This document shows, one piece after another, positions 14,646 through 37,953 of a stretch of 64,000 nucleotides of DNA. The notes below the pieces were generated by a model. The model did no database searches. It was given only the letters and a program-made list of their open reading frames with translations, and was not told the DNA's origin. A program made the translations under genes and the position numbers. Origin of the DNA: Acidobacteriota bacterium (GTDB taxonomy: Bacteria > Acidobacteriota > Vicinamibacteria > Fen-336 > JAGNNV01); assembly GCA_032127745.1 (NCBI GenBank), contig JAQBHL010000225.1:655-64654 (forward strand), in the 5' to 3' direction. The stretch's first letter is position 1; each line of letters starts with the position of its first letter.

Positions 14646-14650
14646 AATCG

Positions 14651-18960: not shown

Positions 18961-21652
18961 AGCCCACCCCCAGGTGCAACTCATGAAGGCTCTCTCCGGG
19001 GCGTCGATCGAGTTTGAAGCCCCAGTCCAGACGCACCGGGCCGAACGGACTTCGATAGCCGAGCCCCACCCCCGCAACCTCGCGAAGGTCTCGGAGGCGG
19101 ACCTCGGAGACGCTGGAAAAGACGTTGCCGGCTTCGGCAAAGAACTGCAGGCCCCACGACCTGGTCAAATGGATCCTCGCTTCCAGCGCCGCCGTGATCA
19201 GGGCATTGCCGCCTTCGGGCACGAACATCCCGTCCTCGGTGTAAGTCCCGGGCCCCAGTTCGTCGGTCTTGAACCCGCGCATCAGCGAGGGGCCTCCGGC
19301 GAAGAACCTTTCCGGCAGAGGCAGCTCCACGGAAGGGCCGAAGGCGCGCGCGACGCCGAGCCGCACCGAACCGGCGAGCACGAAGCCTGCCCGTAACTCG
19401 TCATAACGCGCGGCAAACGCGGAAATCTTGAGGAACGAGTCCCCTCCGAGGCTGGAAAGGGACAACAACGTCTCCACCGAATAGAGCAGCCCGCGTCTGG
19501 GATCTATGGCGTCGTTTCTGGTGTCATGGACAAAGCCGAGCGAGGGCCCGGAGACCTTGCCGTCGCACAGAGCTCGATTGACCTCGGCGCAATCCTGAGC
19601 CACGTTCGAGGTGGTGGTCTTCTGGAACGTGTACTGGGCCAGGATGTTTCCCGAGTGGAGGGGATAGATGGTCTGGGGCTGGAAGCCCACCCGCTTGAAA
19701 TCGAAGGCCTCGCGGGTGCGATCGTCCTCCGCGTAGAGTTGCACGTTGACCGCCTGGCGGCGGCCAAACGCATACGGTTCCTTGAGGGCTAGAAGCGCCC
19801 TCGATCCTCCGACCGAGCCACGGAGGAACAAGGAGACCGACCGCCCCATTCCGGAAAGGTTCAGCTTGGTCAGTTCCAGGCTCGCTCGGAGCTTCTCCGT
19901 CTCGGCAAACCCCAGGCCCGGCACGATGGTGGTGCGAGGGCCCTCGGTCACTTCGATGATGAGGTTCCGCTCGTCGCCCGCGGCCGCGAGTTCCCTGATC
20001 TGGACGTTTACGAACAGCCCGGTGGCGGAGAGGGCGGATCGAGTGTCCAGCAGCTTCTGATACGAAAGGATGTCGCCTTCCTTCAGGCGGCTTTCGCGGA
20101 GAACCACCGTCTCCTTCGTGTCTTTGAGGCCCACCACGAGGATTTGACCCACTCGGACCCGCGGGCCGGGGGTGACGTGAAAAACGATGGCGACGCGGCT
20201 GCGATCGTCCGAATAGTCCGCGGTCGCCTCCACCTGGGCGTCCACGTACCCATCGTCGCGAAGGGAAGTGAGCAGCGCGATACGGTCGCGGGCCACGTCG
20301 TCGTTGCGGAAAGGGATGCTCTCACGGGTCGAAAGCTCGGTGGCGGAGTTCCGGCCTCGCTGAGCCGGCGCGGGCGCGCCTTCGATCTCGACCGATCCCA
20401 CCGTGGTCACGGGTCCGGGCACCGAATTGAACGTGATCCGGGCGCTTCCGGGCTCGCCCGATTCTTCGGCCGAGACCAGGGCGGCCGCGTAGCCCTGCTG
20501 GATGAGGGCGGAGCGCAGTCGCGCCTTCTCGGCATCGATGTCGGCGTCAAGCCAGGGACCGGCGATCGAGAGGGGTCCTTCGGGGGGGGCGGAGACAATT
20601 CCATTGGTTCGATACTCCGCGGCGGCCAGAATCCACAAAGGGCCCGGACGCACCACGAACGCGCCCGAGACGCGATCACCGGTCTGAATCTCCTGAAATT
20701 CGACGTCCACGTAGCGATAGCCGCGCTTCACGTAGTCCGATTCGATGACCGAGACCGTCTCTTCGATCGCGTCCTGGGACAGTCCCTCCTCCGCAAACCG
20801 GACCTCGGCCTTCAGCCTCTCGTTCTGGCTCAGCGGGGCCAGATCGAGGTCGAAGGGCGGGCCCGGATTGACGAAGAAGACCAGGTCACCCCACACGCTG
20901 TCCGTCTTCACCTGTGCGTGGTAGTACGAATTCCTTCGAAGGCTGTCGAGAAGCGCCCCTTTCCAGGCTTCCTTGGTGTCGTCGGTCAAAGCTTCGCCGA
21001 TCCGCGCGGGCGACTTCGGGGGTTCCAGACCCCGGGGCCAGCCGTCGATCCGTGACGAGACCAGCCTTTCCGGGCGGGCCTCCACCACGCGAACCCGGAC
21101 ATCCTCGAGGAAACCGTCGCGCCGAGAGGCCGTGGCCGGCGCCAGGGGCTCGATCTCGATGGTGGCCCGCGGATAGGCATTCGCTCGAAGCCACGTGGTC
21201 ATCCGTGAGGAGGCGTCGGCGAGGGCCTGGTTGCGGAACGGCTCCGAGGAACGCAGGGCCGCGGCGCGCGCGAGCTTCTTCGCCAGCCCGGAGTCCAGAG
21301 GGACATCCGGACCCCCGGCGACCAGGCGGGTGACGAAAATCAACTCTCCCAGACGAGGCGTCTCCGCCACGTTGAAGACGAGACCAAGGGTTCCATCGGG
21401 TTGGGCTTCCTGTTCGACCGACACGTCGTCGAACAGATCCATGGCCGCGAGAAGAAGCACGCTGGACCGGATGGTCTCGGAATCCAGCCGTTCGCCCACC
21501 CTGACGGTCAGGTACCGGACCAAAGAGGGGTCGCTCGATCCGTTGATCTCGATGGAGGAGACCACGGGTGGTTGAGCCAGGGCGGCGGTCGGAACGCTCA
21601 GGGCGAGAGCCGACAAGACCCATCGCAACGCCGGCGCACCCGGTTCAATCAT
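18950..21652 (-). CDS. bamA: Outer membrane protein assembly factor BamA
   Basis: A signal peptide is followed by POTRA repeats and a C-terminal beta-barrel ending ...LGVGYAF. The start ATG at 21652 overlaps the tamB stop as ATGA. Confidence 0.85.
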   Translation of the reverse strand: MIEPGAPALRWVLSALALSVPTAALAQPPVVSSIEINGSSDPSLVRYLTVRVGERLDSETIRSSVLLLAAMDLFDDVSVEQEAQPDGTLGLVFNVAETPRLGELIFVTRLVAGGPDVPLDSGLAKKLARAAALRSSEPFRNQALADASSRMTTWLRANAYPRATIEIEPLAPATASRRDGFLEDVRVRVVEARPERLVSSRIDGWPRGLEPPKSPARIGEALTDDTKEAWKGALLDSLRRNSYYHAQVKTDSVWGDLVFFVNPGPPFDLDLAPLSQNERLKAEVRFAEEGLSQDAIEETVSVIESDYVKRGYRYVDVEFQEIQTGDRVSGAFVVRPGPLWILAAAEYRTNGIVSAPPEGPLSIAGPWLDADIDAEKARLRSALIQQGYAAALVSAEESGEPGSARITFNSVPGPVTTVGSVEIEGAPAPAQRGRNSATELSTRESIPFRNDDVARDRIALLTSLRDDGYVDAQVEATADYSDDRSRVAIVFHVTPGPRVRVGQILVVGLKDTKETVVLRESRLKEGDILSYQKLLDTRSALSATGLFVNVQIRELAAAGDERNLIIEVTEGPRTTIVPGLGFAETEKLRASLELTKLNLSGMGRSVSLFLRGSVGGSRALLALKEPYAFGRRQAVNVQLYAEDDRTREAFDFKRVGFQPQTIYPLHSGNILAQYTFQKTTTSNVAQDCAEVNRALCDGKVSGPSLGFVHDTRNDAIDPRRGLLYSVETLLSLSSLGGDSFLKISAFAARYDELRAGFVLAGSVRLGVARAFGPSVELPLPERFFAGGPSLMRGFKTDELGPGTYTEDGMFVPEGGNALITAALEARIHLTRSWGLQFFAEAGNVFSSVSEVRLRDLREVAGVGLGYRSPFGPVRLDWGFKLDRRPGESLHELHLGVGYAF

Positions 21653-24600
21653 CGGTCGAGGACGATCCGGGTTCTGACGTCGATTCCGAATCCGCCGGGC
21701 TCCGCCCAACTGGCCACCAGGGAAAAGCGGTTGGAGATGGAGTACTCGGCGGTGGCCAGCTGGCTCTCGGTGCCCCCGAAGATGTTGCGGGAGTAGGTGA
21801 CATCAATCTCGGAGGTGACCCTCTTCCCCACGGTAAGGCGCGACCCTCCGGTTCGCTTCAGAAGCCCCATCCCGGGATCGATGGACAGACGCGACAGTCC
21901 AAATCCCTGGGCCATCCGGCCGGTGACGTTGTCGTCCAGCAGGGTGGAGGCGAACGAGCTCAGCCCCCCCGCCCCCAGGGTCTGGAGACTCGCCGAGCTT
22001 CCGATGCTGGCCAGGTCGCTCTCATCGCCCCCGGTGAGCAGACTGGCAATCTGCGGCGCGGTGAGCGGCGGATCCGAGGTGATCCGGGTGGACACCCGGT
22101 CCAGAGTTCCATTCGCTTGAAGGGTGAGCCGGTAGGTGCGCACCCGCGTATCCGCCTCGATCTCGAAGGCGGGATTTATCTCACGCGGGTTGGAAAAGAC
22201 GGCCACTCCCTTGCGGACCTCGTAGGTGTTGCCTCCGAAGAAGACCTTGCCCCGGGCCACCTCCAGACGCCCGAGCAACTGGGGCTCGGTCGGCGATCCG
22301 GTCAGGGTGAGATCGGCGCTGGCCACGAGGGAGGCGAGATTGTTGTCGAGCCTCAGGGTTCCCGGCGCCTTGATGGCGATATCAAGACGCATGGGCGAAG
22401 TTCCCAGACCAAAGGCGGAACGAGACCCGGCGGCCGAGTCGCTCGAGCCGAACAGCTCGGAGGTGATCGCGTATCGCCGGGTCCAGAGGGCCTTCGACAC
22501 GGAGAGCTCACCGGTAAGCCAGTGCGATTCCGTGGTGCCCTGAAGGCGAAGGGAGGCTCCGAAGGTCGAGCGCAGGCCCTCGGGATAGCGAAGTCCGAGG
22601 TCCGCTCCGGTGAACGAGAAGTCGAACGACGGCGGACCGGCTCCCCCAAACCCCATCTGCCCCGAGACCGAGACCCGGCCGCCGCCAAAGCGACCCTCCA
22701 ACCCGGCCACCCGGAGTTGGGTCTCGTTGAACACAAGCCTGCCGTTCAGGGCATCGAGGCCCTGGGGGAAGGTGCGGAGACGGAGGGCGCCGTCTTCGAT
22801 GTCGAGACCACCTGAGATCCTTGGGTCATTCTTCGATCCGCCGATCTGGCTGCGCAGGGTCGCCGAACCTCGGGCCCGCCAGTCTCTGGAAAAGGCCGAA
22901 AGCACGCGAAGATCCGCGCGGCCGGTGACGGCGAGATCGTTCTCGTCGGCCGGCTTGAGAGCCAGTCGGCCTGAAACCGCCAGAGACGTCCCTTCACCGT
23001 TGAGGGTGAGACCGGAGATCTGAATCGCGCCTCTTTCCAGATCGAGCACGAAGCCGGGAGCCGCCTCGATAGCGTATTCGGGAACGGCGATCTTGAGCTG
23101 ACCCTCGCGCACGCGGGCCGTGATCAAGTCCGGCTCGAGCAGCGGTCCGAGAACGCTGGCGTTCGCGGAAGCGGTGATGACCACGGAATTCTGGAAACGG
23201 GATCCGAGAGCCCGAAGGACCGGATCGATGCGCGCGGTCACCAGATTGACCTCCAGGCGGCTCTGGTGCGGGGCCTTGGCTTCTATGGACCCCGAAACCT
23301 CCGCCTGGAAGCGGGGTGAGTCCGACTGACCTTTCACGTGGAGAATTCCGTCGCCCGCCCCTACGACATCGACCACGAAGGCGCCGATCCCCTCATCTCC
23401 GTAGAAAATCCGTTTCGATTCGAGGCGCGCGCTCACCCGGGGCGTTTCGATCGGTCCGCTCAGGCTGGCTCGGCCGGTAACGTGTCCTCCGATCATGGGG
23501 GCCTCGGGATTCTGAAGCCCGAGATCCGAAAGCTCCACCTCGCGAAGGTCCACCTCTCCCTCAAACGCCGGAACTCCCTGGGCATTGATCCAAGTACCCT
23601 GAACCTTGAGATCTCCGCCACCAAGGGCGGCGTTCAGGTTCTTGATCCTCAGCGCTTCTCCCTGAAACTCGAGGTCCAGTTCGGCGGTGGTGAAATCGAC
23701 ACCGAACGCCTTCCCGGATGCGCTCGTGAGACGGGCCTGACCGAGAGGCCTGGCCCTCGTGCCCTGAAGCCGCACCTTTCCCGAGATGGCGCTGTCCACG
23801 TCCAGGGCCGAATCCACGATGTGGAGCAGATCCCTGGCCGGCCAATCCTCGATCTTGATGTCGAGATCCATGGCATCGTCGACTCCAAGGGCGCCCAGCC
23901 GCTGCTTTCCCGTCAACTCCGCGCGGGAGGCGCCGCGGAGGGCGGTGAGACGGTCGGTGTCGAGATCATCCGGGGAGGCCAACCCGGTCCAGTCGACCTC
24001 ACCCCAGAAAACGCCGGCGTAGGCGACATTCTTCCCCTGAAAGCGACCGGAAACGACCGGAGACGAAATCGTTCCGGAGACCTGGCCTTGAAGAACGCCC
24101 TGGCCGGTGGCGCCCAGCGGTTGAGCATCCGGAGTTCCAAAAGCGACCCTGAGGCGCACGCCAAGATCGTCGGTGACGGCCAGATCGTCGCTCGCCAGTT
24201 TCACCTGCAGGCTCAATCGACGGTCGGCCTGAACCGAGCCGTCGAGGGTCACCCGGGTCCGGGGCGCCTCCAGCTGGACGGAACTCATCGTGATCTCGCC
24301 TTCTTTGGCCTCGAAGGGAAATCGCCCGGAGACAGGATCGCCCGCCGCCAAATCGGGGATGAGAACGAGATCGCCCGTGCCGCTCAGCAGGTTCGGCGCC
24401 CCCGCGGGGAGGGAGAGGTCGATCGGTCCGGAGACACGGGCGCCGAGACGGGCGCCGCGATAGTCGAAGAGCCAGCGCAGGAGGGGCTCGGCCGCGAGGC
24501 TGTCGAGGGCGCCCACCACCCGAACCGGTCCTCCTTCCGGCACCTCCACATCGAGCAAACTGTGGCCGCCGATGGCTTCGAGGTCGAGTTCCTTGAGACT

Positions 24601-25542
24601 CAGGTTGGAGCCGTCGAAGGAAACATTCACGGCGAAGGCGTCAACCGGGATGGACGAAACCGAAGCATCCCGCCCATTCAGCCGGCCGCTGAGCTCGATC
24701 TTCTCGCCCCGGATGGAAAGGACGGCCCTGGTCTGAGCCACACCCTTGAGACCGAGGCCGGTCCGAACCACCGAGCGATCGAAAGCTCCGAGGTCGAAGG
24801 GGCCGGAGAGGCGAATCTCGCCCTGGGGCTCCTGGTGAAGGTCCACCTTCCCGGCCAGCGACAGGTTCGTGCCCGCGAAGACCAATAATCCCTGATCGAT
24901 GACCAGATTCGAGTCGGCAAATCTCAGGGACAACTCGAAGCGCGCGTCCTCGGCCGGAAGCGCACCAACCCGCATGGGACCGGGTCCGGCGCTCACCGTT
25001 CCCTGGAGGAGGCTTTTCTCGTCCGCGGCGAGGGAGGCCTCGAAGTTGGGCCAGAAAATCTCCAACGGAATCCGCTGATCGTTGAGGAACAGGTCGCCTT
25101 CGTGGATGACCACGCTCCCTATCGAGACCTCGCGCGAGGAGGCGCCGGTCGAGACCATCCGCGGCAGATCGGTGGAACCATCCGGAAGGACCTGAAGGGA
25201 AATCCGAGGCTGGTCGAGCTCGAACCGGCGCAACAGGATCTTGTGGGTGAAAAGGGATCGGAAAGACAGAGCCAGACGCACGCGGGCGGCCAGGAAGGTG
25301 GGCCGCTTGGATCCGGGCCGGCCGGGAATCATCACGTCCCGCAGTTCGACTTCGCGCCGAGGCAGGTTGACGGACAGGGCGCCCACCGTCACCGGTCGCT
25401 CCAGAGCCTCGGAAAGGCGCCGCTCGACCTGTGTTCTCAGAGCCTTCTCACCCAGGAGCGCGAACAGGGTCAGAGCCACGACCCCGGTGAGGGCCAAGGC
25501 CGCAAGGCCGATCCTGCTGAATCGGGCGAACTTTCGAATCAA
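21649..25542 (-). CDS. tamB: Translocation and assembly module protein TamB (AsmA-like, DUF490 C-terminus)
   Basis: The protein is 1297 aa with an N-terminal signal-anchor. Its Gly/Ser/Leu-rich beta-taco-like body ends with the DUF490-type C-terminus ...SRFSLVASWAEPGGFGIDVRTRIVLDR. Confidence 0.8.
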   Translation of the reverse strand: MIRKFARFSRIGLAALALTGVVALTLFALLGEKALRTQVERRLSEALERPVTVGALSVNLPRREVELRDVMIPGRPGSKRPTFLAARVRLALSFRSLFTHKILLRRFELDQPRISLQVLPDGSTDLPRMVSTGASSREVSIGSVVIHEGDLFLNDQRIPLEIFWPNFEASLAADEKSLLQGTVSAGPGPMRVGALPAEDARFELSLRFADSNLVIDQGLLVFAGTNLSLAGKVDLHQEPQGEIRLSGPFDLGAFDRSVVRTGLGLKGVAQTRAVLSIRGEKIELSGRLNGRDASVSSIPVDAFAVNVSFDGSNLSLKELDLEAIGGHSLLDVEVPEGGPVRVVGALDSLAAEPLLRWLFDYRGARLGARVSGPIDLSLPAGAPNLLSGTGDLVLIPDLAAGDPVSGRFPFEAKEGEITMSSVQLEAPRTRVTLDGSVQADRRLSLQVKLASDDLAVTDDLGVRLRVAFGTPDAQPLGATGQGVLQGQVSGTISSPVVSGRFQGKNVAYAGVFWGEVDWTGLASPDDLDTDRLTALRGASRAELTGKQRLGALGVDDAMDLDIKIEDWPARDLLHIVDSALDVDSAISGKVRLQGTRARPLGQARLTSASGKAFGVDFTTAELDLEFQGEALRIKNLNAALGGGDLKVQGTWINAQGVPAFEGEVDLREVELSDLGLQNPEAPMIGGHVTGRASLSGPIETPRVSARLESKRIFYGDEGIGAFVVDVVGAGDGILHVKGQSDSPRFQAEVSGSIEAKAPHQSRLEVNLVTARIDPVLRALGSRFQNSVVITASANASVLGPLLEPDLITARVREGQLKIAVPEYAIEAAPGFVLDLERGAIQISGLTLNGEGTSLAVSGRLALKPADENDLAVTGRADLRVLSAFSRDWRARGSATLRSQIGGSKNDPRISGGLDIEDGALRLRTFPQGLDALNGRLVFNETQLRVAGLEGRFGGGRVSVSGQMGFGGAGPPSFDFSFTGADLGLRYPEGLRSTFGASLRLQGTTESHWLTGELSVSKALWTRRYAITSELFGSSDSAAGSRSAFGLGTSPMRLDIAIKAPGTLRLDNNLASLVASADLTLTGSPTEPQLLGRLEVARGKVFFGGNTYEVRKGVAVFSNPREINPAFEIEADTRVRTYRLTLQANGTLDRVSTRITSDPPLTAPQIASLLTGGDESDLASIGSSASLQTLGAGGLSSFASTLLDDNVTGRMAQGFGLSRLSIDPGMGLLKRTGGSRLTVGKRVTSEIDVTYSRNIFGGTESQLATAEYSISNRFSLVASWAEPGGFGIDVRTRIVLDR

Positions 25543-25599: not shown

Positions 25600-26115
25600 T
25601 CAGACAATCACAAGGAGGAGGGCTCCCGTTTCGACCGCCTGACCCTCCTCGACCCGGATCTCCTGGATGGTTCCCGGCCTCGACGCCTTGAGTTCGTTTT
25701 CCATCTTCATGGCTTCCATGACGAGAAGGCCGCGGCCGGCCTCGACGGTATCGCCGAGACGGACCAGCACCTTGACGATCTTTCCGGGCATGGGGGCGAT
25801 GAGTTTGAGCGGACCGGAGTGAGCGGCCGGGCCCAGAGCCGCTCCCTTCACCGCATCCTTGAGTTCGACATCGAACCGGTCCCCTCGCACCAGAACCGCG
25901 AAGCCCTGAGCGGTCTTCTGGAGACCCAGATCGTGGGACTTTCCGTCCAGGAGGACAGAAAGGTGATGGCTGCCGGTCCTCACCAGGTCGAGCTTCAGCA
26001 TCTTCTCGCCGATGGTGACCCGGTAGATGCCCTGGGTTTCGCGCACCTCCACGCGCGCGGTCCGCCCCGCGGTGGTGGCGTCAAAGAGCACGCCGCACCT
26101 CGGAGAATCCGTCAT
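25600..26115 (-). CDS. Biotin carboxyl carrier protein-like (biotinyl domain)
   Basis: The C-terminal biotinyl-lysine motif EAMKMENE is present. The gene is 3 nt downstream of the accC stop. Confidence 0.8.
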   Translation of the reverse strand: MTDSPRCGVLFDATTAGRTARVEVRETQGIYRVTIGEKMLKLDLVRTGSHHLSVLLDGKSHDLGLQKTAQGFAVLVRGDRFDVELKDAVKGAALGPAAHSGPLKLIAPMPGKIVKVLVRLGDTVEAGRGLLVMEAMKMENELKASRPGTIQEIRVEEGQAVETGALLLVIV

Positions 26116-26118
26116 CCA

Positions 26119-27633
26119 TCACAGCCGGGTCACCGATTCGCGATTCCCGAGCCGCCACCACAAAGACGAGGATGAGCTTCCCGTTCCCGGAGCGAGACTC
26201 GTGCGCCGGCGGGCGCGATACGCGGCGACCGCGGCCACCGCCATGGCGATTTCCGTGGCCCGATCCCGATCGTCCGTGCCGGCCTGCAGCCGGGCCACAA
26301 AGCCGGTGTCGAAATCACCCTCGATGAACCGAGGGTCCCGGAGCGCCCGGTCGAAGAAAGGAAGCGTGGTCTTGATCCCGGTGATCCCGTATTCGGAGAC
26401 CGCCCGGAGCATTCGGGCGATCGCGGCCTCGCGGGTCGGGGCATGGACGACCAGCTTCGAAATCAAGGGGTCGTAGAACATCGACACGTCGCAGCCTTCA
26501 TAAACCCCCGAATCGTCACGCACCCCCGGACCTCCGGGCGTACGCAGAGATTCGATCCGGCCCGGGTTCGGAATGAAGTTCGCCTCCGGGTCCTCGGCGC
26601 ACACCCGGCACTCGATCGAATGGCCGCGCTGGGTCAGATCCTTCTGGGCGAAGGGGAGAGCCTCTCCCTGGGCGATTCGGATCTGCATCTGGACCAGATC
26701 GACACCGGTCACCATTTCCGTGATGGGATGCTCGACCTGAAGGCGAGTATTCATCTCCAGGAAATAGGGCTGCCGGTTCTCGTCGACCAGGAACTCGATG
26801 GTGCCCGCATTCACGTAACCGACCTTCTTCACCAGGGCCACGGCCAGAGACCCCATCCGCTCCCGCAACTCGGGGGTCACGAACGGGGAGGGGCTCTCCT
26901 CGATGATCTTCTGGTGGCGACGCTGGATGGAACATTCGCGCTCGAAGAGATGGACCGCATTGCCGTGGGTGTCGGCAAGAACCTGGATCTCGATGTGCCT
27001 GGGCTTGAGAAGGGCCCGCTCCAGGTAGAGGCTGTCGTCACCAAACGCGCCCTTCGCCTCGCTGCGCGCCCGGAGGATGCTCGCCTCGAGTTCTTCAGGG
27101 CCGCTCACCAGCCTGAGGCCCTTCCCGCCCCCGCCCGCGGCGGCTTTGAGCATCAGGGGATAGCCGATCCGTTTCGCCTCGCGAAGTACGGCGGCGTCGT
27201 CGACGAGGGCGTGGAGCGCTCCCGGAACCACCGGGACGCCTGCGTCCACGGCCACCCTTCGCGCCGCGGTCTTCTCGCCCATGGCGCTGATGGCCGCGGG
27301 GGGAGGGCCGATGAACACCACTCCCGCGTCCTGGCAGGCCCTCGCGAAGGCCGCGTTTTCCGAAAGGAAACCGTAGCCGGGATGAATCGCATCCGCGCTC
27401 GAACGCTGCGCCACCTCGAGAATCCGGTCCATCCTCAGATAGGACTCGGCCGAGGGCGACGGTCCGATGAAGTAGGCCTCGTCGGCGTAGCGAACGTGCA
27501 GGGCCGCCCGGTCCGCATCGGAGTAGACGGCGACCGTCCCGATGCCCATCTCCCGACAGGCCCGCATCACGCGCACGGCGATCTCGCCGCGGTTGGCGAT
27601 CAGGATCTTGCGGAACTTTCGGGAAGTCGACAC
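26119..27633 (-). CDS. accC: Acetyl/acyl-CoA carboxylase biotin carboxylase subunit
   Basis: The N-terminus KILIANRGEIAVRVMRA and the ATP-grasp motifs are present. Confidence 0.9.
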   Translation of the reverse strand: MSTSRKFRKILIANRGEIAVRVMRACREMGIGTVAVYSDADRAALHVRYADEAYFIGPSPSAESYLRMDRILEVAQRSSADAIHPGYGFLSENAAFARACQDAGVVFIGPPPAAISAMGEKTAARRVAVDAGVPVVPGALHALVDDAAVLREAKRIGYPLMLKAAAGGGGKGLRLVSGPEELEASILRARSEAKGAFGDDSLYLERALLKPRHIEIQVLADTHGNAVHLFERECSIQRRHQKIIEESPSPFVTPELRERMGSLAVALVKKVGYVNAGTIEFLVDENRQPYFLEMNTRLQVEHPITEMVTGVDLVQMQIRIAQGEALPFAQKDLTQRGHSIECRVCAEDPEANFIPNPGRIESLRTPGGPGVRDDSGVYEGCDVSMFYDPLISKLVVHAPTREAAIARMLRAVSEYGITGIKTTLPFFDRALRDPRFIEGDFDTGFVARLQAGTDDRDRATEIAMAVAAVAAYRARRRTSLAPGTGSSSSSLWWRLGNRESVTRL

Positions 27634-27722
27634 GAGAGGCTTGATTCTAGTGGCTGGGGCGAACGCGGCTCATCGGGCTTGCCAGGATCGGCATGCTTGT
27701 GACATCGTACCCCTCGCCCGAT

Positions 27723-27900
27723 GGAGGAGCGGTCCCCATCAGTAGTCCTCACTGACGAACGCTGGCTTCGGATGAAGGGGGACGAAAGGGGAGGACCGCC
27801 GAAGGGGTGAAAGGACGACAGCACTTTCATCCCTGGACGTGAGGGGAGAAGACCCCGCGGCTGCTGCGGCCTCACGAAGGAGGCCGTGGAGCGCCTGAGG
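27723..27900 (+). promoter_or_regulatory. Probable lysine riboswitch (L-box) in the asd-lysC leader
   Basis: Sequence elements match my recollection of the B. subtilis lysC and T. maritima L-box sequences. They are GGAGGAGCGG...CAUCAGUAG, GAAAGGGGAGG-ACCGCCGAAGGGGUGAAAGGA (the loop-E/K-turn core) and CCGUGGAGCGCC near the 3' end. The element sits ~175 nt upstream of asd on the correct strand. Confidence 0.55.
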
Positions 27901-27943
27901 AACAATCGTCACCGTGTGGTTTGCGGTGAGAGAAGTGGACTTT

Positions 27944-27970
27944 CAAGGAGTCCACGGTTGTTTCGACGAT
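27944..27970 (+). terminator. Hairpin GTGGACT-ttcaagg-AGTCCAC followed by GGTTGTTTCG; candidate attenuator of the riboswitch expression platform
   Basis: The inverted repeat was read directly. The U-tract is weak. Confidence 0.3.
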
Positions 27971-28075
27971 GGACTCCGGAGAGCGGAGTTCAACGGAGAT
28001 GAGACAAAAAACGATGTTCCTTCACAAGACGGAGCGGCTGACCCTGGTCTCGCCGTCGATATCGAGGTCGAGGCC

Positions 28076-29128
28076 ATGAACCGCATTCCCGTCACCATCC
28101 TGGGCGCCACCGGTGTGGTCGGCCAGCGCTTCGTCCGCCGTCTGGTGGATCACCCTCTTTTCGAAATTCAACATCTCGCCGCTTCCGATCGAAGCACCGG
28201 AAAGGCCTACCGGGAAGCCTGCGCCTGGCGGCTCGACAGCCGCCCTTACGGCGGCCTGGGAGGCCGGATCCTGAAGGCCGCGCACCCGAGGGAGGCTCTG
28301 TCTCCCGTGGTCTTCAGCGCCCTCGACTCCGGACCCGCCTCGGAGATCGAACCTCTCTTCGCCGCGGGCGGGTCGCTCGTCTTCTCGAATGCTTCGGCCT
28401 TCCGCATGGCCGCGGATGTGCCTCTGCTCGTCCCCGAGGCGAACGCCGATCACCTCGGCCTGATCGGAGCGCAGCGGAAGGCCCGGGGCTGGAACGGCGC
28501 CATTGTCTGCAACCCCAACTGCACCGCGACCGTCCTGGTCATGGGCCTGGCTCCGCTTCATCAGGCCTTTGGCATCGAGCGCGTCTTCATGACCTCGATG
28601 CAGGCGATCAGCGGCGCCGGGTATCCCGGCGTTCCGAGCCTGGACATCCTCGGTAACGTGATTCCCTTCATCCGGAACGAGGAGGAGAAGGTCGAGGAGG
28701 AGACCCCGAAGATGCTGGGGGGGTTCGCCGACGGCGCGGTCACGCACGCGCCCTTTACGATTTCCGCCATGTGCCATCGCGTTCCCGTGGTCGAGGGTCA
28801 CTCCGAGGCGGTGAGTGTCGCCCTGCGCGGGAGTCCTTCCCCCGACCAGGTGGCGAAAGTGTTTCAAAGCTGGCGCGGAGATTCCCGGGTGAGTTCGCTC
28901 CCCTCCGCGCCCGAGGTTCCGATTCGCGTTCATTCCGAGGAGGACCGGCCCCAGGTGCGCCTCGATGTGGAGAAAGATGGCGGCATGAGTGTGCATGTCG
29001 GACGGGTGCGCCGATGCCCGCTGCTGGGGGTGAAATTCGCCCTCCTGGGCCACAACACGGAGCGAGGTGCGGCGGGCGCTTCGGTCCTGAACGCCGAACT
29101 CGCCCATGCCCTTGGATATCTCGGATGA
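28076..29128 (+). CDS. asd: Aspartate-semialdehyde dehydrogenase
   Basis: The sequence MNRIPVTILGATGVVGQRF...CNPNCTATVLVMGLAPL (active-site Cys) is characteristic of Asd. Confidence 0.9.
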   Translation: MNRIPVTILGATGVVGQRFVRRLVDHPLFEIQHLAASDRSTGKAYREACAWRLDSRPYGGLGGRILKAAHPREALSPVVFSALDSGPASEIEPLFAAGGSLVFSNASAFRMAADVPLLVPEANADHLGLIGAQRKARGWNGAIVCNPNCTATVLVMGLAPLHQAFGIERVFMTSMQAISGAGYPGVPSLDILGNVIPFIRNEEEKVEEETPKMLGGFADGAVTHAPFTISAMCHRVPVVEGHSEAVSVALRGSPSPDQVAKVFQSWRGDSRVSSLPSAPEVPIRVHSEEDRPQVRLDVEKDGGMSVHVGRVRRCPLLGVKFALLGHNTERGAAGASVLNAELAHALGYLG

Positions 29129-30495
29129 GCGTGGTTCTCAAGTTCGGCGGAAGCAGCGTGGCCGACGCCGCCTGCATAAGGCGGGTCGCGGAAATCGCGA
29201 AGGGGGCGCTCGACCGAAGCCCGATAGTGGTTCTCTCGGCCATGGGCAAGACCACCGACGCTTTGTTCGCGGCCGCCCAGACCGCCGAACGCGGCGACAC
29301 CGAGGGGGCGCTCGGGGCCCTTCGCAACATGGTCGAAGGACATGGCCAGACCTGTTCTGATCTGTGGGGGAACGACCGGCCCGCGGATCTCCAGGCTTTC
29401 ATCGTGGCCGCCACCACCCAGCTCGACATGCTTCTGCGCGGCGTCTCCTTGCTTCGGGAACTGTCCGCGCGCAGCCGCGACGCCATCGTGTCCTTCGGCG
29501 AACTGCTGAGCTCGCAGATTCTGGCCGCCTTCCTTCACTCGGAGGGTGTTTCCACTTCGTGGCTCGACGTGCGGCGGGTCATGCGCACCGACGCCCGTTT
29601 CGGGAGTGCCGAGCCGCAGACGTCTCAGATCGCGGGGCTCGCGAAGACGGACCTGGCCCCCCTCATGGGTCCCGGCCGGATCGTGGTCACCCAGGGGTAT
29701 GTGGGAGCTACCAGGGACGGCATCACCACCACTCTGGGCCGCGGCGGTAGCGATTACTCCGCCTCCATCCTCGGGGCCGCGATCGGCGCGGATGAAGTTC
29801 AGATATGGACCGATGTCGAGGGCATTCTGACCGCGGACCCGCGGATGGTGCCTGAAGCCTCCCCTATCCTCGATCTGAGCTTCCGGGAGGCCGCGGAGCT
29901 TGCGGCCTTCGGGGCCAAGGTCCTTCATCCGGCGACCATTCAACCAGCGGTGGAGGCCGACATTCCGGTGACCGTGCGCCACACCCTGCGGCCTTTCGGC
30001 AGGTTCTCCACCATCACCGCGAAGGGCGGAACCGGCTCGCCGCGGCCCGCCACCGCCATCGCCAGCCGGAGCCCGATTCAGGTCATCACCATCGAGAGCA
30101 CGAGGATGCTGGCCCAGAGCGGCTTCCTGGCCCGCATCTTCGAGGTGTTCGGCCGTCTGGGCACATCGGTCGACGTGGTGGCAACCGCCGAGGTCAGTGT
30201 GTCCCTGACCGTGGAGGCGAGCGCCCCGGTTGAGGCGATCCAGAAGGAGCTGAGTGCTTTCGCCCGGGTTAGCATCGCTCCCGACCGCGCCCTCGTGGCC
30301 GTGGTGGGCGAGAGACTCAAGCACACTCCGGGTCTGGCCGCGCGTGTCTTCGGGGCCCTGTCTTCGATCAACGTGGAGATGATCTCGATGGGCAGCAATG
30401 AGATCAACCTGAGTCTCGTGGTGGAGCGCCGGGAAGAAGCGGCCGCGGTGCGTCTCCTCCACCAGGCCCTGTTCGCCGCGCAAGGATCCAGATGA
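29125..30495 (+). CDS. lysC: Aspartate kinase
   Basis: ATGA overlap with asd. The sequence MSVVLKFGGSSVAD... is followed by the C-terminal ACT domains. Confidence 0.9.
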   Translation: MSVVLKFGGSSVADAACIRRVAEIAKGALDRSPIVVLSAMGKTTDALFAAAQTAERGDTEGALGALRNMVEGHGQTCSDLWGNDRPADLQAFIVAATTQLDMLLRGVSLLRELSARSRDAIVSFGELLSSQILAAFLHSEGVSTSWLDVRRVMRTDARFGSAEPQTSQIAGLAKTDLAPLMGPGRIVVTQGYVGATRDGITTTLGRGGSDYSASILGAAIGADEVQIWTDVEGILTADPRMVPEASPILDLSFREAAELAAFGAKVLHPATIQPAVEADIPVTVRHTLRPFGRFSTITAKGGTGSPRPATAIASRSPIQVITIESTRMLAQSGFLARIFEVFGRLGTSVDVVATAEVSVSLTVEASAPVEAIQKELSAFARVSIAPDRALVAVVGERLKHTPGLAARVFGALSSINVEMISMGSNEINLSLVVERREEAAAVRLLHQALFAAQGSR

Positions 30496-31217
30496 AGGTC
30501 GGCCTCTTCGGTCGGGGGCGTCTCGCCTCCGCCATCGCCGCCCATGGTGGCGACACCGTGGTCTGGAAGCTTGGACGCCACGACCCTCCCCCCGAGAACG
30601 CGAGGGTGGATGCCGCGATTGACGCCTCGACGGGCAGCGCGGTGGAGGCGCACCTCCATTGGGCGCTCGAGCATGGCGTCGATCTCATCATCGGAGCCAC
30701 CGGTTGGTCGATCCCCGATCTCCAAACCCGCGTGGGGCAGAGGATCGGTTTGGTGGTGGCTCCGAACTTCTCTCTCTCGGTGGCGCTTTACGCGCGTCTC
30801 ACACTGGTCATGGCGCGGTTCGCCGCTCTCGATCCGGGGCGCGACCCCTACATCGTCGAACATCATCACGCCCGCAAGAAGGATGCGCCCTCGGGAACGG
30901 CGAAACTTCTGGCTGGTGTCATCCTGAAGGGGTGTCCGCGCAAGACGGAGTGGACGCTTCAGGGTCCGGGCGAGCTCAAGGAGCACCAGTTGAGCGTCTC
31001 CGCCATTCGCGCTGGGCACACCTACAGCTCTCACATCGTGGGCATCGACGCTCCCGCCGAAACCCTCGAGTTGCATCACGCCTCTCGTTCCGCCATGGCG
31101 TACGCGGACGGCGCCTTGCGGGTAGCCGCCTGGGTTCAAGGACGCAAGGGTGTTTTCACCATGGACCAGTTTGCCGAAGAGGCACTCGATCCGCTTTTCA
31201 AAGAGGTCCGACCGTGA
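30492..31217 (+). CDS. dapB: 4-hydroxy-tetrahydrodipicolinate reductase
   Basis: ATGA overlap. The EHHHARKKDAPSGTA signature is present. Confidence 0.85.
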   Translation: MKVGLFGRGRLASAIAAHGGDTVVWKLGRHDPPPENARVDAAIDASTGSAVEAHLHWALEHGVDLIIGATGWSIPDLQTRVGQRIGLVVAPNFSLSVALYARLTLVMARFAALDPGRDPYIVEHHHARKKDAPSGTAKLLAGVILKGCPRKTEWTLQGPGELKEHQLSVSAIRAGHTYSSHIVGIDAPAETLELHHASRSAMAYADGALRVAAWVQGRKGVFTMDQFAEEALDPLFKEVRP

Positions 31218-32101
31218 ACGCCGATTTTTCCGGGCTTGCCGTCGCTCTCGCCACACCCTTCACCGCGTCCGGCGAAATCGACCTGAAGGCGTTCCGGGCT
31301 CTGGTCCGGCACGTGGCCGGAGGTGGAGCGGATGTCCTGGTCGTGCTCGGCTCCACCGGCGAGGGCGCGACCATCGCCGAGGACGAGCGGGACCCGTTGA
31401 TCGCGGCCTGCCTGGAGGAGGCGGGGGGGAAGAAGGTGGTGGCAGGCACCGGGCACAACTCCACGCGCCAGACCGTGGCCTGGACCAGGCGGGCACAGGA
31501 ACTGGGCGCGCACGGCGCTCTGATCGTCACGCCCTTCTACAACAAGCCGACCCCCCAGGGACTGGTCGCCCACTTCAAAGCCGCGGCCGATGGGGCGCCC
31601 GGGCTTCCGTTCATCGTCTACAACGTTCCCGGCCGCACTGGTCTGAACCTCACCCCGACCGCGCTCCAGCTCCTCTGGCAGAACCCTCAGGTGGTGGCGG
31701 TGAAGGAATCTAGCGGGAACGTGGCCCAGGTCAGCGAAGTATCGCGCACTCTCCCCAAGGGCAAGACCCTTCTCTCCGGGGACGACAACCTCGCCCTGGC
31801 CTCGATCGCGGTGGGCGCCCATGGGCTGGTCTCCGTGCTTGGAAACATGTTCCCCGGGGAAACCAAACAGCTGGTCGAAGCCGCGCGGGCGGGAAGGCGC
31901 GAGGAAGCGGTGGCCCTCAACCATCGCTTGCTGCCGTTGATCGACGCGCTGTTCGTCGAGAGCAATCCGATTCCCCTGAAGGCCGGTCTGAAGATGCTCG
32001 GCCTGGGGGAGGACCATGTTCGCCTGCCCCTGACCACGGCCACCGAAACCACCCGAACCCGCCTCAAGGAAGCGCTGGCCCAGGCCGGCATCAAAGTCTA
32101 G
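31214..32101 (+). CDS. dapA: 4-hydroxy-tetrahydrodipicolinate synthase
   Basis: GTG start in a GTGA overlap with dapB. The sequence LATPFTASGEIDL...VLGSTGE...VKES (Schiff-base Lys) is characteristic. Confidence 0.85.
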   Translation: MNADFSGLAVALATPFTASGEIDLKAFRALVRHVAGGGADVLVVLGSTGEGATIAEDERDPLIAACLEEAGGKKVVAGTGHNSTRQTVAWTRRAQELGAHGALIVTPFYNKPTPQGLVAHFKAAADGAPGLPFIVYNVPGRTGLNLTPTALQLLWQNPQVVAVKESSGNVAQVSEVSRTLPKGKTLLSGDDNLALASIAVGAHGLVSVLGNMFPGETKQLVEAARAGRREEAVALNHRLLPLIDALFVESNPIPLKAGLKMLGLGEDHVRLPLTTATETTRTRLKEALAQAGIKV

Positions 32102-32109: not shown

Positions 32110-32925
32110 ATGGATCTTCAGACTCTCCAAGCCTTCTACGAGCGTCCTCCGGCCGAGGCCGCGGCGGATCCGCGGTGGCCGGAAGCGCACGCCGCCCTGT
32201 TGCTGGGCCTCGAGTCGGGCCGGCTGCGATCCGCCGAGCCGGATGGTTCCGGAGACTGGCGGGTCAACCTCTGGGTGAAGCAGGCCATCCTCGCCGGGTT
32301 TCGGGCCACCCGGATGGTGGAGTTGCCCGGTCCCGGGTTTCCCTTCATCGACAAGACCGCTTTCCCGCCGCGCGCGTTTTCGCTGGACGAGGGGGTGCGC
32401 ATGGTCCCGGGCGGATCGAGCGTGCGCCGGGGCTCGTTCATCGCGGCGGGCGTGACTGTGATGCCGCCCGCCTTCATCAACATGGGCGCCTTCGTGGACG
32501 AAGGAACCATGGTGGATTCGCACGCGCTCGTGGGCTCGTGCGCGCAGATCGGGAAGCGGGTCCACCTCTCCGCCGCCGCGCAGATCGGCGGCGTGCTGGA
32601 GCCGGCGGGAGCCCGCCCGGTCATCATCGAGGACGATGCCTTCGTCGGGGGCCTGGTGGGGGTGTTCGAAGGGGTGCGGGTGCGTCAGGGCGCGGTGCTG
32701 GCGAGCGGCGTGGTCCTGACCGCCTCCACCGTGATCCACGACCTGGTCCTCGAGCGCGAGTGGACGCTGGAGGTCCCGGAGGGCGCGGTGGTGGTGCCGG
32801 GATCGCGACCGGCCCGGGGCGGCTTCGCGGATTCGCGCGGACTTCACCTCGCCACCGCGGTGATCGTGAAGTATCGGGATGCCCGAACCGACGCCGCCAC
32901 CGCGCTCGAAACCGCGCTCCGGTAG
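32110..32925 (+). CDS. dapD: Tetrahydrodipicolinate N-succinyl(acyl)transferase
   Basis: A hexapeptide-repeat fold is present, and ...NMGAFVDEGTMVDSHALVGSCAQIGKRVHLSAAAQIGGVLEP closely parallels E. coli DapD. Confidence 0.85.
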   Translation: MDLQTLQAFYERPPAEAAADPRWPEAHAALLLGLESGRLRSAEPDGSGDWRVNLWVKQAILAGFRATRMVELPGPGFPFIDKTAFPPRAFSLDEGVRMVPGGSSVRRGSFIAAGVTVMPPAFINMGAFVDEGTMVDSHALVGSCAQIGKRVHLSAAAQIGGVLEPAGARPVIIEDDAFVGGLVGVFEGVRVRQGAVLASGVVLTASTVIHDLVLEREWTLEVPEGAVVVPGSRPARGGFADSRGLHLATAVIVKYRDARTDAATALETALR

Positions 32926-32928: not shown

Positions 32929-34890
32929 TCAGCCGACGTGGATGCGGGGCCGATGCTCCGGATTTGGGACGGCGCGCCGCAGGACCTCCTGGGTGACGGG
33001 CGCGGTGTCGCCCTCCCCAAGAAAGATGTACTTCAGGACGTAGGAAATGGGGTTGCCCTCCGTCCAGCCGAAATAGGCGTGAGCCGTCCTGCCGGATCGC
33101 TTCTGGGCCTCGATCAGGATCGCGGCAATGGCGTTGGGAATGGCGGGAGAAACGCAGCGCAGAATGCGATGACCGCCGATCCGAACCGCTCGCACCTCCA
33201 GCTCGTCCTTGATGAAACTCGACGCGTCTCCCTGCGTCACCTCGAGAAAGACGATGGGCTCTCCGGCATCGAGTGCGTGGTCTTCCCGGGCCCGGCGTTC
33301 CTTGCCCGCGTACTCGTCCATGGCCTGCCGGTCGGGCCGATGCGCGATGATGCGCACCGGTTGGGGAGCCAGGGCATCGAGAAACTCCGAGGCCTTGGGC
33401 GAGAAACGGACGGTCTCGATGCGCAGCTCGGTGGAGCGCTGAAAGCGGGACAGGATCGAGAGGAAGACGATCCCCCCGATGAAGAGCAGAGAAATCGCGA
33501 GCCCCATGGGAGCGTTGATCACCACGGTGAGGGTGGTGTAGGCGAAGACCAGGGCCATCCCCGTGTAGATCCACTTGGAGTCGTTCTCCCGCCATTTCTG
33601 GATGGCCACGGCCAGGGCCGCCGAACTCATCATGGCCAGGACTCCGGTGCCGTAGGCATCGCCCTGGGCCTTGACGCTGGCGTCGAAGAACCAGGTGACC
33701 ACCAGGGTGATGAAGGTGAAGACCAGCACCAGGGGGCGGGTGGCCCGGGCCCAGTCGGGCGCCATTCCGTAGGGAGGCAGATACTGGGGCACCAGGTTGA
33801 GGAGGCCGGCCATGGCGGAGGCGCCGGCGAACCAGAGGATGGCGATGGTCACCATGTCGTAGAACGTGCCGAATCCATCCCCGAAGAACTGATGAGCCAG
33901 GAAGGCGAGGGCGCGGTCGTGCGCTTTCCCGCCCGGCTGGTGAGCCTCCATGGGAATCAGGAGCGTGGTCGCGAACGAGGACGCGATCAGGGCCACGCTC
34001 ATGATGAGCGCAGCCATGAGCAAAAGCTTGCGCGCGTTTCGAATTCGCCCCCGAGGGGTCTCTTCGGTGTCCGCGGCATCGCCTCTTACCAGGGGCATCA
34101 CCTGCACTCCGGTTTCGAAACCGGAGAGCCCAAGGGCGATGCGCGGGAAGACGAGAAGGCCGACCAGGAACGCGGAGCCCAGGCCTCCATGCGACGACAT
34201 GACGTTGACCGTCCAGTTCTCCACGAGTTCGGGATGCCTCCCGATTTCCAGGAACGCGCGGCCGAGGACCACGGTGTTGGCCAGCAGATAGGCGGCCACG
34301 ATGAAGACCGCAACCCCGATCGCCTCATGCAGGCCCTTGAGAAACACGCCGCCCAGGCCGATCAGCAGCAGACCGGTCACGATCACTTCATGGTGCTGGA
34401 GAAACCCCGGGGTGTACGGGTTCTCCACGATGTGGGCGGTGGCGTCGGCGGCCGACAGGGTCATGGTGATGATGTAGGCGGTGAAGGTGAAGCCCAAGAG
34501 GACGAGGACGAGGGCCTTGCCCCTCCACCGGGTGAGCAGGTGTTCCAGCATGGACACACTTCCGCGCCCGTGGGGGGAATAGTGCGCCACCTGCCGGTAG
34601 ACGGGGAGAGCGACGAAGAGGGTCACCAGGACGAGGATGCTGGTGGCAATCGGGGAGAGGGCCCCCGCGGCCAGAATGGCGATGCCGGGCTGGTAGCCGA
34701 GAGTGGAGAAGTAGTCGACGCCGGTGAGGCACATGACCTGCCACCAGGGGGCGGTGGGTTTCTCGGCCGAAGGATCGTCGCGGCCCTTCATCAGCCACTC
34801 CCCGAGCCATCGTCCGTCGGCCGCCGGCCTGCCGCTTCCGGCGAGGGCCCCGCGAGCGATCGTCGGATCGCTCTCGTTCATTTCACTCAT
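32929..34890 (-). CDS. APC-superfamily amino acid permease with ~200-aa C-terminal cytoplasmic extension
   Basis: There are about 12 TM helices. The C-terminal soluble domain is of unknown type. The true start may be an internal Met (MKGRDD...). Confidence 0.6.
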
Positions 34891-35001
34891 TGGCGGGTCC
34901 GAGCATAGCGAATCCTGCGGTCCCGCTCGGTGGAGCCGGCGGCGGTCTCGAATCGGACGGGTGGTCTGGAAGTCCTTCCCAGGAAGGCGAAAGCCCGGCC
35001 T

Positions 35002-35877
35002 TCAGCGACGCTCGAAGACCATTATGTCGTGGCTCATGGTCACGCTCATGAGGGTGAGCCCCTCCACGGCAGCGCGCTCGCTCTGCCTGAACCCTCGGTA
35101 GGTAGCGATCAGGAGATCTCGAAGATCGGAGGGTTCGAGCTTCCGGATTTCACGAACCGCCATCCTGTCCGCCAGCGTGAATCGCGGCGCCAGTGCCTCA
35201 CCCACCCTGGCCCCGCGCCACTTTTCGACCTTGGCCCCCTGGATCCGTTCGCGCAGCTCGATCAGGTCGTCGGGGCCGGGAACGGCCATGAGGACGAGAC
35301 CCTGCTTGGTCAAAACCCTCTCGAATTCGGGCGCGTTCACGCGGGAGTCGATGGAGGTGACGATGTCGAACGAGTCGCCGGCGTAGGGGAGGGCACGGTC
35401 GGCGTTCGCCAAGACGAACAGAACCTCCGGCGATGCCTTGGCCGCGAGCTGGATCGACGGCGGCGAAATGTCCACACCGTGGCGTTCCAGATCGGGAAGC
35501 GAGGCGAGGGCACGGAGGAACCCACCCTCGCCGCATCCGACGTCCAGAAGCGAAGCCGGGCCTTGACTCCACCGGCGGCGAACCACCTGGGCCAGGGCCT
35601 GCTGGGCGGGATCGGTGTGACCCCGGGTCGCGAGTCGGCGCCTGGCCTGCGCCGCTTCGCGAGAGTCGCCCGGATTTTTCGACCGGCGGTCCTGGGGCTG
35701 CAGAAGATTGAGGAAGCCGTAGCGGTGTCGATCGAACGCATGACCCCGGGGGCAGGCCCAGGTCGAGTCTCCGCGATTCAGCGATTGCCCGCACCCTCGA
35801 ACCGGACAGCGGAGGACCACTCTCATCGCCGCCGTTCCCCTCGCCCCGGTGGAGCCCGGCGGGCGAGTCTTTGTCAT
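35002..35877 (-). CDS. rlmA: 23S rRNA (guanine745-N1)-methyltransferase RlmA-like
   Basis: An N-terminal Zn ribbon CPVRGCG...CPRGHAFD is present. GFLNLLQPQDRRSKNPGDSREAAQARR parallels E. coli RlmA, and MT motif I is LLDVGCGEGGF. The start is either the ATG at 35877, which abuts the upstream TAG, or 35826. Confidence 0.75.
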   Translation of the reverse strand: MTKTRPPGSTGARGTAAMRVVLRCPVRGCGQSLNRGDSTWACPRGHAFDRHRYGFLNLLQPQDRRSKNPGDSREAAQARRRLATRGHTDPAQQALAQVVRRRWSQGPASLLDVGCGEGGFLRALASLPDLERHGVDISPPSIQLAAKASPEVLFVLANADRALPYAGDSFDIVTSIDSRVNAPEFERVLTKQGLVLMAVPGPDDLIELRERIQGAKVEKWRGARVGEALAPRFTLADRMAVREIRKLEPSDLRDLLIATYRGFRQSERAAVEGLTLMSVTMSHDIMVFERR

Positions 35878-37422
<1,545 letters not shown>

Positions 37423-37438
37423 GCTCGGTGAACCCCGG

Positions 37439-37678
37439 CTAATTGGGAAGACGACCGCACTGAACGGCCCCGCAAGGGGGGCCTTCGCCGCATCCCCCAG
37501 AGGAAGGCTGGTGTTCTCCTCGGGCCGCCTGTCCGCCCGTGGAGACGGCGAAGGTCGAGAGGAGTCGGGTGACGTCTTTGGTCCCGCAGCTCGGACAGTC
37601 TGGCTGGTCATTGAAGGTGCGGGCGTACCGCTCGAAGGGCCGGGCGCACTGTGAACAGCGATATTCGTAAAGAGGCAT
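37439..37678 (-). CDS. FmdB-family zinc-ribbon protein
   Basis: The N-terminus [16 protein letters not shown]...CPSCG is the canonical FmdB N-terminus. Confidence 0.7.
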
Positions 37679-37953
37679 GGGTAAAGTGCGATCAAGGATC
37701 AGGGAAGAGCGGTCTTCCCAGTGGTCGTGCGCGATCATGATATCGCTGACGCGCTTTCACCACGGACTGCTGGTGTCCCGCCTCGTAAGTACGTGGCACA
37801 TGCGAGGGTCGAGGCGCCCGGAGCGCAAGGCGCCGAGGAGGCCGCATATCCAGCATAGGCAAGGAGCGCGAAGCCTGCCCTCGGGGCACGAGCGACGCCG
37901 GGATCCGGGATGCATCGGCGCTCCCAGGTGACGCGTACTTGCGAGGCCGAACA

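Follow-up and report, generated by a model that had tools for sequence, protein, structure and literature searches.

What controls the operon asd-lysC-dapB-dapA-dapD in a bacterium of the class Vicinamibacteria (Acidobacteriota), and by what route would the signal reach its first gene? The locus lies in a stretch of 64,000 nucleotides (nt) of contig JAQBHL010000225.1 (assembly GCA_032127745.1), here called the window, for which a model working from the letters alone (the sequence-only reading) had proposed a lysine riboswitch in the leader of a complete diaminopimelate (DAP)/lysine operon. Our analysis supports the identity of this element: it is a lysine riboswitch (L-box, RF00168) in the leader of asd-lysC-dapB-dapA-dapD. 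Judged by its family and by the functions of the genes that follow, it very probably acts as a lysine-responsive OFF switch for the five-gene operon.

The aptamer and its distribution

Rfam cmscan over the whole window returned a match to RF00168 (Lysine) on the plus strand with 70.0 bits against a gathering score of 30 (E-value = 3.2e-16). The match spans model positions 1-182 of 182 and is not truncated; in the 64 kb, the families above their gathering scores were RF00168 and one tRNA, and nothing else. The interval originally proposed, 27723-27970, was right in part, as the aptamer begins 9 nt earlier and ends at 27904, the remainder up to 27970 being the expression platform (Table 1). The L-box motifs quoted in the sequence-only reading are all present, each with a single occurrence in the window: GGAGGAGCGG at 27723, CATCAGTAG at 27737, GAAAGGGGAG at 27784, CGCCGAAGG at 27797 and CCGTGGAGCGCC at 27884. 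Specifically, the junction cores GGAGGAGCG (P1/P2), CGCCGAAGG (P2/P3) and CCGUGGAGYGCC (P5/P1) each stand once and at the expected place, and they are invariant in the aptamer alignment.

The five helices P1-P5 around a five-way junction were recovered by RNAalifold from eight aptamers of Vicinamibacteria, Holophagaceae and 'Solibacteraceae', with compensatory changes in 18 of the 50 pairs, and the pairing of P2-P5 is kept by such changes across Acidobacteriota classes. P1 joins 27718-27724 to 27894-27900 through four Watson-Crick pairs and a 3x3 internal loop, GAU opposite UGA (G.A, A.G, U.U), whose positions are flagged as non-canonical by Infernal; this loop is kept in all relatives. P1 is fully Watson-Crick (CCGAUGG/CCAUCGG) in some distant lineages with the same aptamer type. 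The signatures of the loop E (AGUA ... GAAAGG) and of the kink-turn (CUGA ... GAUGAAG), which the proposed fold had included, are present in P2 at the level of sequence, where AGUA, CUGA, GAUGAAG and GAAAGGG fall on positions that the RF00168 model gives in upper case as consensus. Concerning a possible kissing contact between loops L2 and L3, the complementarity in the window (GCUG/CAGC, 4 bp) is not above that of shuffles. Across 31 distinct aptamers, the longest run averages 4.87, compared with 3.80 in shuffles, and the complementary pairs differ among aptamers (UGCUG/CAGCA, UUGC/GCAA, UGUGC/GCACA and GCUGAC/GUCAGC).

The closest relatives of the Asd protein come from metagenome-assembled genomes of Vicinamibacteria (81-86% identity), followed by Holophagaceae (about 72%), Planctomycetota (64-67%) and Acidobacteriaceae and Gemmatimonadales (about 52%). 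The order asd-lysC-dapB-dapA-dapD is retained in Vicinamibacteria, Holophagaceae, 'Solibacteraceae' and Planctomycetota. Rfam found the aptamer in seven of 11 loci sampled across these groups, and a covariance model built from the eight-aptamer alignment and used to search related loci found it at full length in 24 genome loci, all of them ahead of DAP-gene operons. It is present at full length in every Vicinamibacteria locus that keeps the operon and occurs in most loci of Holophagaceae and 'Solibacteraceae', where a DapE/ArgE-family gene stands between aptamer and asd; the same custom model found none in the loci of Planctomycetota, Acidobacteriaceae and Gemmatimonadales. Additionally, a metagenome scan with the aptamer core led to 80 loci, all with the aptamer (71 at full length, nine cut by a contig end). 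Wherever enough downstream sequence was available, DAP-pathway genes followed on the same strand, in the orders asd-lysC-dapB-dapA-dapD, dapE-asd-lysC-dapB-dapA-dapD, lysC-dapB-dapA-dapD, dapB-dapA-dapD and others. In Vicinamibacteria and Holophagae, as the comparison shows, DAP operons are normally under predicted control by a lysine riboswitch. In two Vicinamibacteria loci, L005 and L008, asd is no longer followed by lysC-dapB-dapA-dapD and the aptamer is gone in both; its loss along with the lysine-specific genes implies that its retention in the window reflects selection for lysine control.

The operon, its end and known counterparts

Profiles of NCBIfam and Pfam gave the five genes the same identities as first assigned (Table 1). 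Three junctions are overlaps, as had been described (ATGA for asd/lysC, ATGA for lysC/dapB and GTGA for dapB/dapA), and dapA and dapD are separated by 8 nt instead of the 9 first given. The DapB protein, at 241 aa, is of a short type, with about 35 residues fewer in the N-terminal dinucleotide-binding domain than the TIGR00036 profile, and this form is conserved at the same operon position in all relatives. Of the nine steps in the succinylase branch, the operon supplies the first five on the way from aspartate to lysine (lysC, asd, dapA, dapB and dapD), and family searches recognised no dapC, dapE, dapF or lysA among the genes of the 64-kb window. To call it a complete operon for the whole pathway was therefore too generous.

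The operon ends at dapD, because the conserved reading frame downstream lies on the minus strand. A convergent gene (32929..34890, minus strand) follows with 3 nt between the two stop codons, and the minus-strand frame keeps 78-79% identity in relatives, compared with 42-49% for the plus frame. Its product (653 aa), conserved at 78-79% in Vicinamibacteria, has no match in Pfam or NCBIfam. The interval between dapD and this gene leaves no space for a terminator, and no canonical terminator was found after dapD. Two plus-strand open reading frames (ORFs) were considered as further operon genes and rejected: 32938..34908, where the minus frame is conserved and has coding-type GC content at third codon positions (GC3), and 34930..36195, which has no family match and where gene calling by GC3 puts a minus-strand methyltransferase gene.

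Multi-gene DAP operons under a lysine riboswitch have been tabulated in Staphylococcus, Thermotoga and Bacteriovorax (PMC5584792, Table 1), among them lysC-asd-dapA-dapB-dapD in Staphylococcus and lysC-dapB-dapA-dapD-lysA in Bacteriovorax, together with asd-lysC in the acidobacterium Ca. Solibacter usitatus. A single lysine sensor for a multi-gene DAP operon is an established arrangement, in Acidobacteria as well, to which the window adds a slightly different gene order; the suggestion that one sensor for the operon is notable did not survive, since such operons were already on record and are the rule in this lineage. As in Thermotoga maritima, one RF00168 aptamer precedes a multi-gene DAP operon starting with asd (PMC5584792, Table 1), but gene set and order differ (five genes, with neither dapF nor lysA), P1 in the window has the conserved GAU/UGA internal loop, and the platform described below has no recognisable similarity. 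Staphylococcus has the identical five gene functions under one lysine riboswitch (PMC5584792, Table 1), whereas the order in the window is asd-lysC-dapB-dapA-dapD, and transcription termination, the mode generally ascribed to the Firmicute examples, is not clearly how the riboswitch of the window works. Finally, Ca. Solibacter usitatus belongs to the same phylum and has the riboswitch before an operon starting asd-lysC (PMC5584792, Table 1); two genes are listed there, while the window and most loci of Vicinamibacteria and Holophagae continue through dapB-dapA-dapD.

The expression platform and the mode of switching

The aptamer and the ancestral start codon are about 110 nt apart, and this interval holds three hairpins (H1-H3) and highly conserved linkers. 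Ahead of the aptamer, two blocks form a possible promoter that would put the transcript start near 27712; a sigma-70 consensus scan called no promoter at 27679..27705. A pairing of the upstream GUGAC (27699-27703) with the 5' arm of H1 was dropped, as these letters lie inside the promoter-like block and are probably not transcribed. Segment A and the U-rich segment X can form a duplex of 11 bp (A:X), the best partner in most relatives. At 27907/27956 the window has a compensatory C-G pair where relatives have G-C, and analogous helices occur in distant subtypes. H1 has an A-U pair in the window where relatives have G-C, and a U-A pair in L012 and L013 where relatives have C-G. H3 is conserved in all leaders of the Vicinamibacteria type, and its 5' arm carries CUCC (27974-27977), complementary to the GGAG of the Shine-Dalgarno (SD)-like sequence. 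Segment B, which reads GAAACAAC in relatives, directly precedes the ancestral start codon. In the Vicinamibacteria type it is a near-copy of segment A, and X is complementary to each of them. Minimum-energy folding of relatives predicts the X:B helix, as does constrained folding of the window. A:X and X:B each fit 96-98% of the cells in 19 leaders, compared with 26-48% for slid controls, and the outer X:B pair of the divergent leader L082 is a compensatory C-G where relatives have G-C; this change and the one in A:X of the window are the only compensatory ones in the two helices. A permissive Rfam scan for a second RNA motif in 27880-28120 gave chance-level matches only (best E-value = 0.13, far below gathering).

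In most relatives asd starts at the position that corresponds to 28014 of the window, after which the window, L009 and L005 carry an insertion. The sequence following 28014 (ATGTTCCTTCAC) resembles the ancestral 5' end of asd with 7 nt deleted, which makes a partial duplication its likely origin. The upstream ORF (uORF) opened by this ATG has 21 codons in the window, 21 in L009 and 10 in L005, and its TGA overlaps the ATG of asd in all three. In the window and in L009 the last 30 nt of the uORF are predicted to fold into a hairpin that ties up both GAGG SD candidates (28064-28067 and 28070-28073), along with the first letter of the asd AUG, and pairing in its stem is kept through substitutions (GGUCUCG/CGAGGCC in the window, GGCCUCG/CGAGGUC in L009). 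This layout is the classical one for translational coupling and would make sense if the signal relayed to asd is translational. A longer uORF from the in-frame ATG at 27999 and a 5-codon mini-ORF in relatives were both dropped, their ATGs not being conserved.

The route that we propose runs through both strands of P1. With lysine bound, P1 would close and the platform would stay compact, with H3 and X:B beside the start codon, a fold that would bury the translation initiation region at AUG 28014, the ancestral asd start that in the window now opens the relic uORF. In the absence of lysine the strands of P1 would be free for other partners: its 3' end, together with segment A, would pair with X, its 5' strand (GAUGGAG) would pair with the CUCC arm of H3, and these pairings would open the ribosome-binding region. 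Ribosomes on the uORF would then melt the hairpin that hides the SD sequence of asd and restart at the ATGA overlap, and repression would reach lysC, dapB and dapA via the same type of overlap, probably also by Rho polarity or mRNA decay. In this detailed form, an unusual translational platform of Vicinamibacteria and related Acidobacteriota in which each P1 strand has a downstream decoy partner, joined in the window's own lineage by a relic-uORF relay to asd by termination-reinitiation, the scheme is tentative and more likely wrong than right in some part. As regards the mode of switching in general, mainly translational control comes close to an even chance and dual control is a lesser possibility. 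The best explanation overall, with the lysine OFF switch for the five-gene operon at its core, is given a probability of roughly 0.8.

In distant lineages with the same aptamer type, the leaders that were read have a terminal hairpin in which GGAGG, 7-9 nt ahead of the AUG, is sequestered. The loop and 5' arm of this anti-SD hairpin copy the 3' strand of P1 (CUCCAUCGG, CUCCNUCGG, CACCGUCGG) and are complementary to the 5' strand of P1 (CCGAUGGAG); among 67 leaders the complementarity extends to eight of nine positions in 15 and to at least seven in 53. This suggests two competing partners for the 5' strand of P1, the true one and a copy further downstream. Leaders of the Vicinamibacteria type have CUCCAUC or CUCCUGA in the equivalent place. 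When the 5' strand of P1 was forced onto the H3 arm in silico, A:X formed spontaneously and H3, X:B and the ribosome-binding site opened. In L115 a GTG start lies inside the base of an extended H3. The Escherichia coli lysC riboswitch is said, after Caron et al. 2012, to control translation initiation, coupled to mRNA decay. It would resemble the mode proposed for the window in being a lysine OFF switch on the ribosome-binding region that does not act via a terminator, but it serves a single gene, sequesters by a different arrangement and lacks a uORF relay.

Several points weigh against the proposed translational OFF switch. Ligand binding and the direction of control are drawn from family membership and gene function, and the segment complementary to the 5' strand of P1 is weak in the window (CUCCGGA). 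X:B is predicted to be more stable than A:X by 0.5-13 kcal/mol, with the P1 strand held or free, and holding P1 shifts the balance between the two by only about 1 kcal/mol in most sequences; the modelled energy of the ON state minus that of the OFF state lies between -7 and +9 kcal/mol (median near +3, no ligand term included), the ON state being typically the less stable. The two-helix swap is thus put forward as a hypothesis whose modelled energetics are only roughly balanced. Covariation cannot decide between A:X and X:B, because the platform sequences are near-invariant. The SD-like GGAG stands 15 nt before AUG 28014, an unusually long spacing. Moreover, the hairpin with its U-rich tract is kept in every leader of the Vicinamibacteria type, the divergent L082 included, which favours a terminator role, and the modules also occur apart from one another: L043 keeps the aptamer without H1 and H2, and L005 keeps X-H3-B without the aptamer. 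A purely thermodynamic switch through the overlap of A and P1 was rejected, since an overlap of 2 nt and a shift of about 1 kcal/mol are insufficient.

Three natural variants bear on this platform. In L008 (6650-7030) the entire leader is lost. L005 (6650-7030) has an internal deletion of about 195 nt from P2 to H2, with the X-H3-B module and a short uORF remaining. L043 (6755-7001) has a full, high-scoring aptamer and a complete operon, and H1 and H2 are precisely deleted (GGAACAAT joined to CGTTGTTTCG); a change in its H3 3' arm, GUUCAAC to GUUCCAC, creates complementarity to GGAAC of segment A. L043 could be a natural test of the requirement for H2, or an assembly artefact.

The first alternative to be weighed is transcription attenuation, in which lysine would let H2 and the U-rich tract GGUUGUUUCG terminate and, without lysine, an antiterminator would block H2 so that the operon is transcribed; we hold this to be possible yet doubtful. 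Termination is the usual mode of lysine riboswitches in Firmicutes (PMC5584792). The terminator-like hairpin of the sequence-only reading is real and conserved, only misplaced by about 9 nt (27944..27964 had been given), and no antiterminator for it is predicted. H2, followed by GGTTGTTTCG at 27956..27965, satisfies the consensus rule, its stem being invariant and its loop variable in 19 leaders; with 7-9 stem pairs before a tract in which five of eight letters are U, it would be a weak terminator by canonical criteria, although it is conserved, and a stem counted at 6-7 bp with so few U speaks against termination. The hairpin-plus-U-tract rule gave one site in a 900-nt region where 0.6 were expected, and across the window its hits fall mostly inside coding sequence, so that the pattern alone is not significant. 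It was found in 20 of 87 leaders compared with 3.5 expected by shuffling. All 20 are of the Vicinamibacteria type, where it is conserved throughout, and no leader outside that type has it; in L082 a different hairpin sequence still stands directly before the U-rich tract, and a mutually exclusive upstream hairpin (ACGCCC/GGGCGU), as read from the sequence, could act as antiterminator. On the other side, no alternative that disrupts H2 appeared in free or P1-held folds of the window and 10 relatives, nor in duplex scans, and A:X overlaps H2 by only 2 bp and cannot form until the U-tract leaves the polymerase. The frequency of the same pattern inside genes of this genome and the lack of a canonical terminator after dapD count against attenuation as well, as does L043, with aptamer and operon intact and H1 and H2 gone, and purely transcriptional control would leave the retained coupling of uORF and asd unexplained. 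That the aptamer is instead an inactive relic or senses another ligand, the operon being controlled otherwise (e.g., by LysC feedback inhibition only), is highly improbable: the three non-Watson-Crick positions flagged in P1 and the short L2-L3 complementarity of the window, not significant alone, would fit it, but the full-model match scores over twice the gathering threshold, every core motif is intact, P2-P5 are maintained across Acidobacteriota classes, the unusual P1 loop is conserved as well, loci that lose the lysine-specific genes quickly lose the aptamer too (L005, L008) and the gene context is always one of DAP genes.

Feature coordinates and neighbouring genes

Table 1. Features of the riboswitch leader, the operon and one neighbouring gene group, in window coordinates.
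Feature	Coordinates	Strand	Basis or remark
Possible promoter, TTGCCA (27679-27684) and TGTGACAT (27698-27705)	27679..27705	+	near-invariant blocks in 14 Vicinamibacteria leaders
Lysine riboswitch aptamer, helices P1-P5	27714..27904	+	RF00168, consensus fold, relatives
Segment A (GGAACAAUCGU)	27899..27909	+	overlaps last two G of P1 3' strand; complementary to X
Hairpin H1	27910..27928	+	covaries
Hairpin H2, terminator-like, GTGGACT-TTCAAGG-AGTCCAC	27935..27955	+	stem-loop consensus rule
Segment X, U-rich tract (ACGGUUGUUUCG)	27954..27965	+	invariant in 19 leaders; pairs with A upstream or B downstream
Hairpin H3, core UGGACUCC / GGAGUUCA at 27970-27992	27967..27995	+	-16.6 kcal/mol, z -5.6
SD-like GGAG (27995-27998) and segment B (GAGACAA, 28001-28007)	27995..28007	+	leader alignments
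Relic uORF, 21 codons (MFLHKTERLTLVSPSISRSRP, then stop)	28014..28079	+	starts at the ATG that is the asd start in most relatives; ATGA overlap with asd ATG
Hairpin in uORF	28045..28076	+	-20.1 kcal/mol in the window, -22.8 in L009
asd, aspartate-semialdehyde dehydrogenase, archaeal-like 'EA' type	28076..29128	+	NF006416 429 bits; TIGR00978 394 bits (cut-off 301)
lysC, aspartokinase (AK), monofunctional, lysine-sensitive AK III-like	29125..30495	+	NF006570 469 bits (cut-off 455)
dapB, 4-hydroxy-tetrahydrodipicolinate reductase	30492..31217	+	TIGR00036 102 bits (below cut-off 122); Pfam DapB_N and DapB_C above cut-offs
dapA, 4-hydroxy-tetrahydrodipicolinate synthase, GTG start	31214..32101	+	TIGR00674 280 bits (cut-off 206)
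dapD, tetrahydrodipicolinate N-succinyltransferase, last operon gene	32110..32925	+	NF008808 285 bits (cut-off 204)
tRNA-Met, RelA/SpoT-family gene and others, coordinates as grouped	50232-50307 (-); 47984-50146; 41340-41945; 42001-42882		

Genes for biotin carboxylase and biotin carboxyl carrier protein (25600-27633, minus strand) lie immediately upstream of the riboswitch and diverge from it, and an acyl-CoA carboxyltransferase gene (35878-37695, minus strand) is found about 3 kb past the operon; components of a single carboxylase thus seem to lie on both sides of the DAP genes. A long same-strand cluster at 4798-18346, with glycosyltransferase (GT4, GT2), methyltransferase and PMT_2-like genes, probably serves the synthesis of an exopolysaccharide or cell-envelope glycan; next comes a gene of the TamB/AsmA family (21649-25542, minus strand). 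DNA topoisomerase I (44232-46761, minus strand) appears split into two overlapping frames, by a frameshift or a sequencing error: the frame at 45631-46761 holds Toprim and positions 2-155 of Topoisom_bac, and the frame at 44232-45902 holds positions 157-405 of Topoisom_bac and zinc ribbons. A tRNA-Ser (CGA) called by ARAGORN at 45341-45428, on the opposite strand inside the topoisomerase gene, has no Rfam support and is probably false. The tRNA-Met (CAT) has a RelA/SpoT-family gene as its neighbour; two genes that match no family come after a gene for an ECF sigma factor, and genes for an XerC/D-type tyrosine recombinase and a GidA-family protein lie nearby.

For this poorly studied soil phylum the analysis provides a confident and well-delimited annotation of a riboswitch, of its five-gene operon and of the end point of that operon, and the general knowledge of lysine riboswitches is unchanged by it. 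Some wider interest would lie only in the putative translational platform built on decoy partners and in the proposed relay of control to asd by a relic uORF. With the natural deletion variants L005, L008 and L043, these two features would form a compact set in which to study the evolution and decay of riboswitch platforms.

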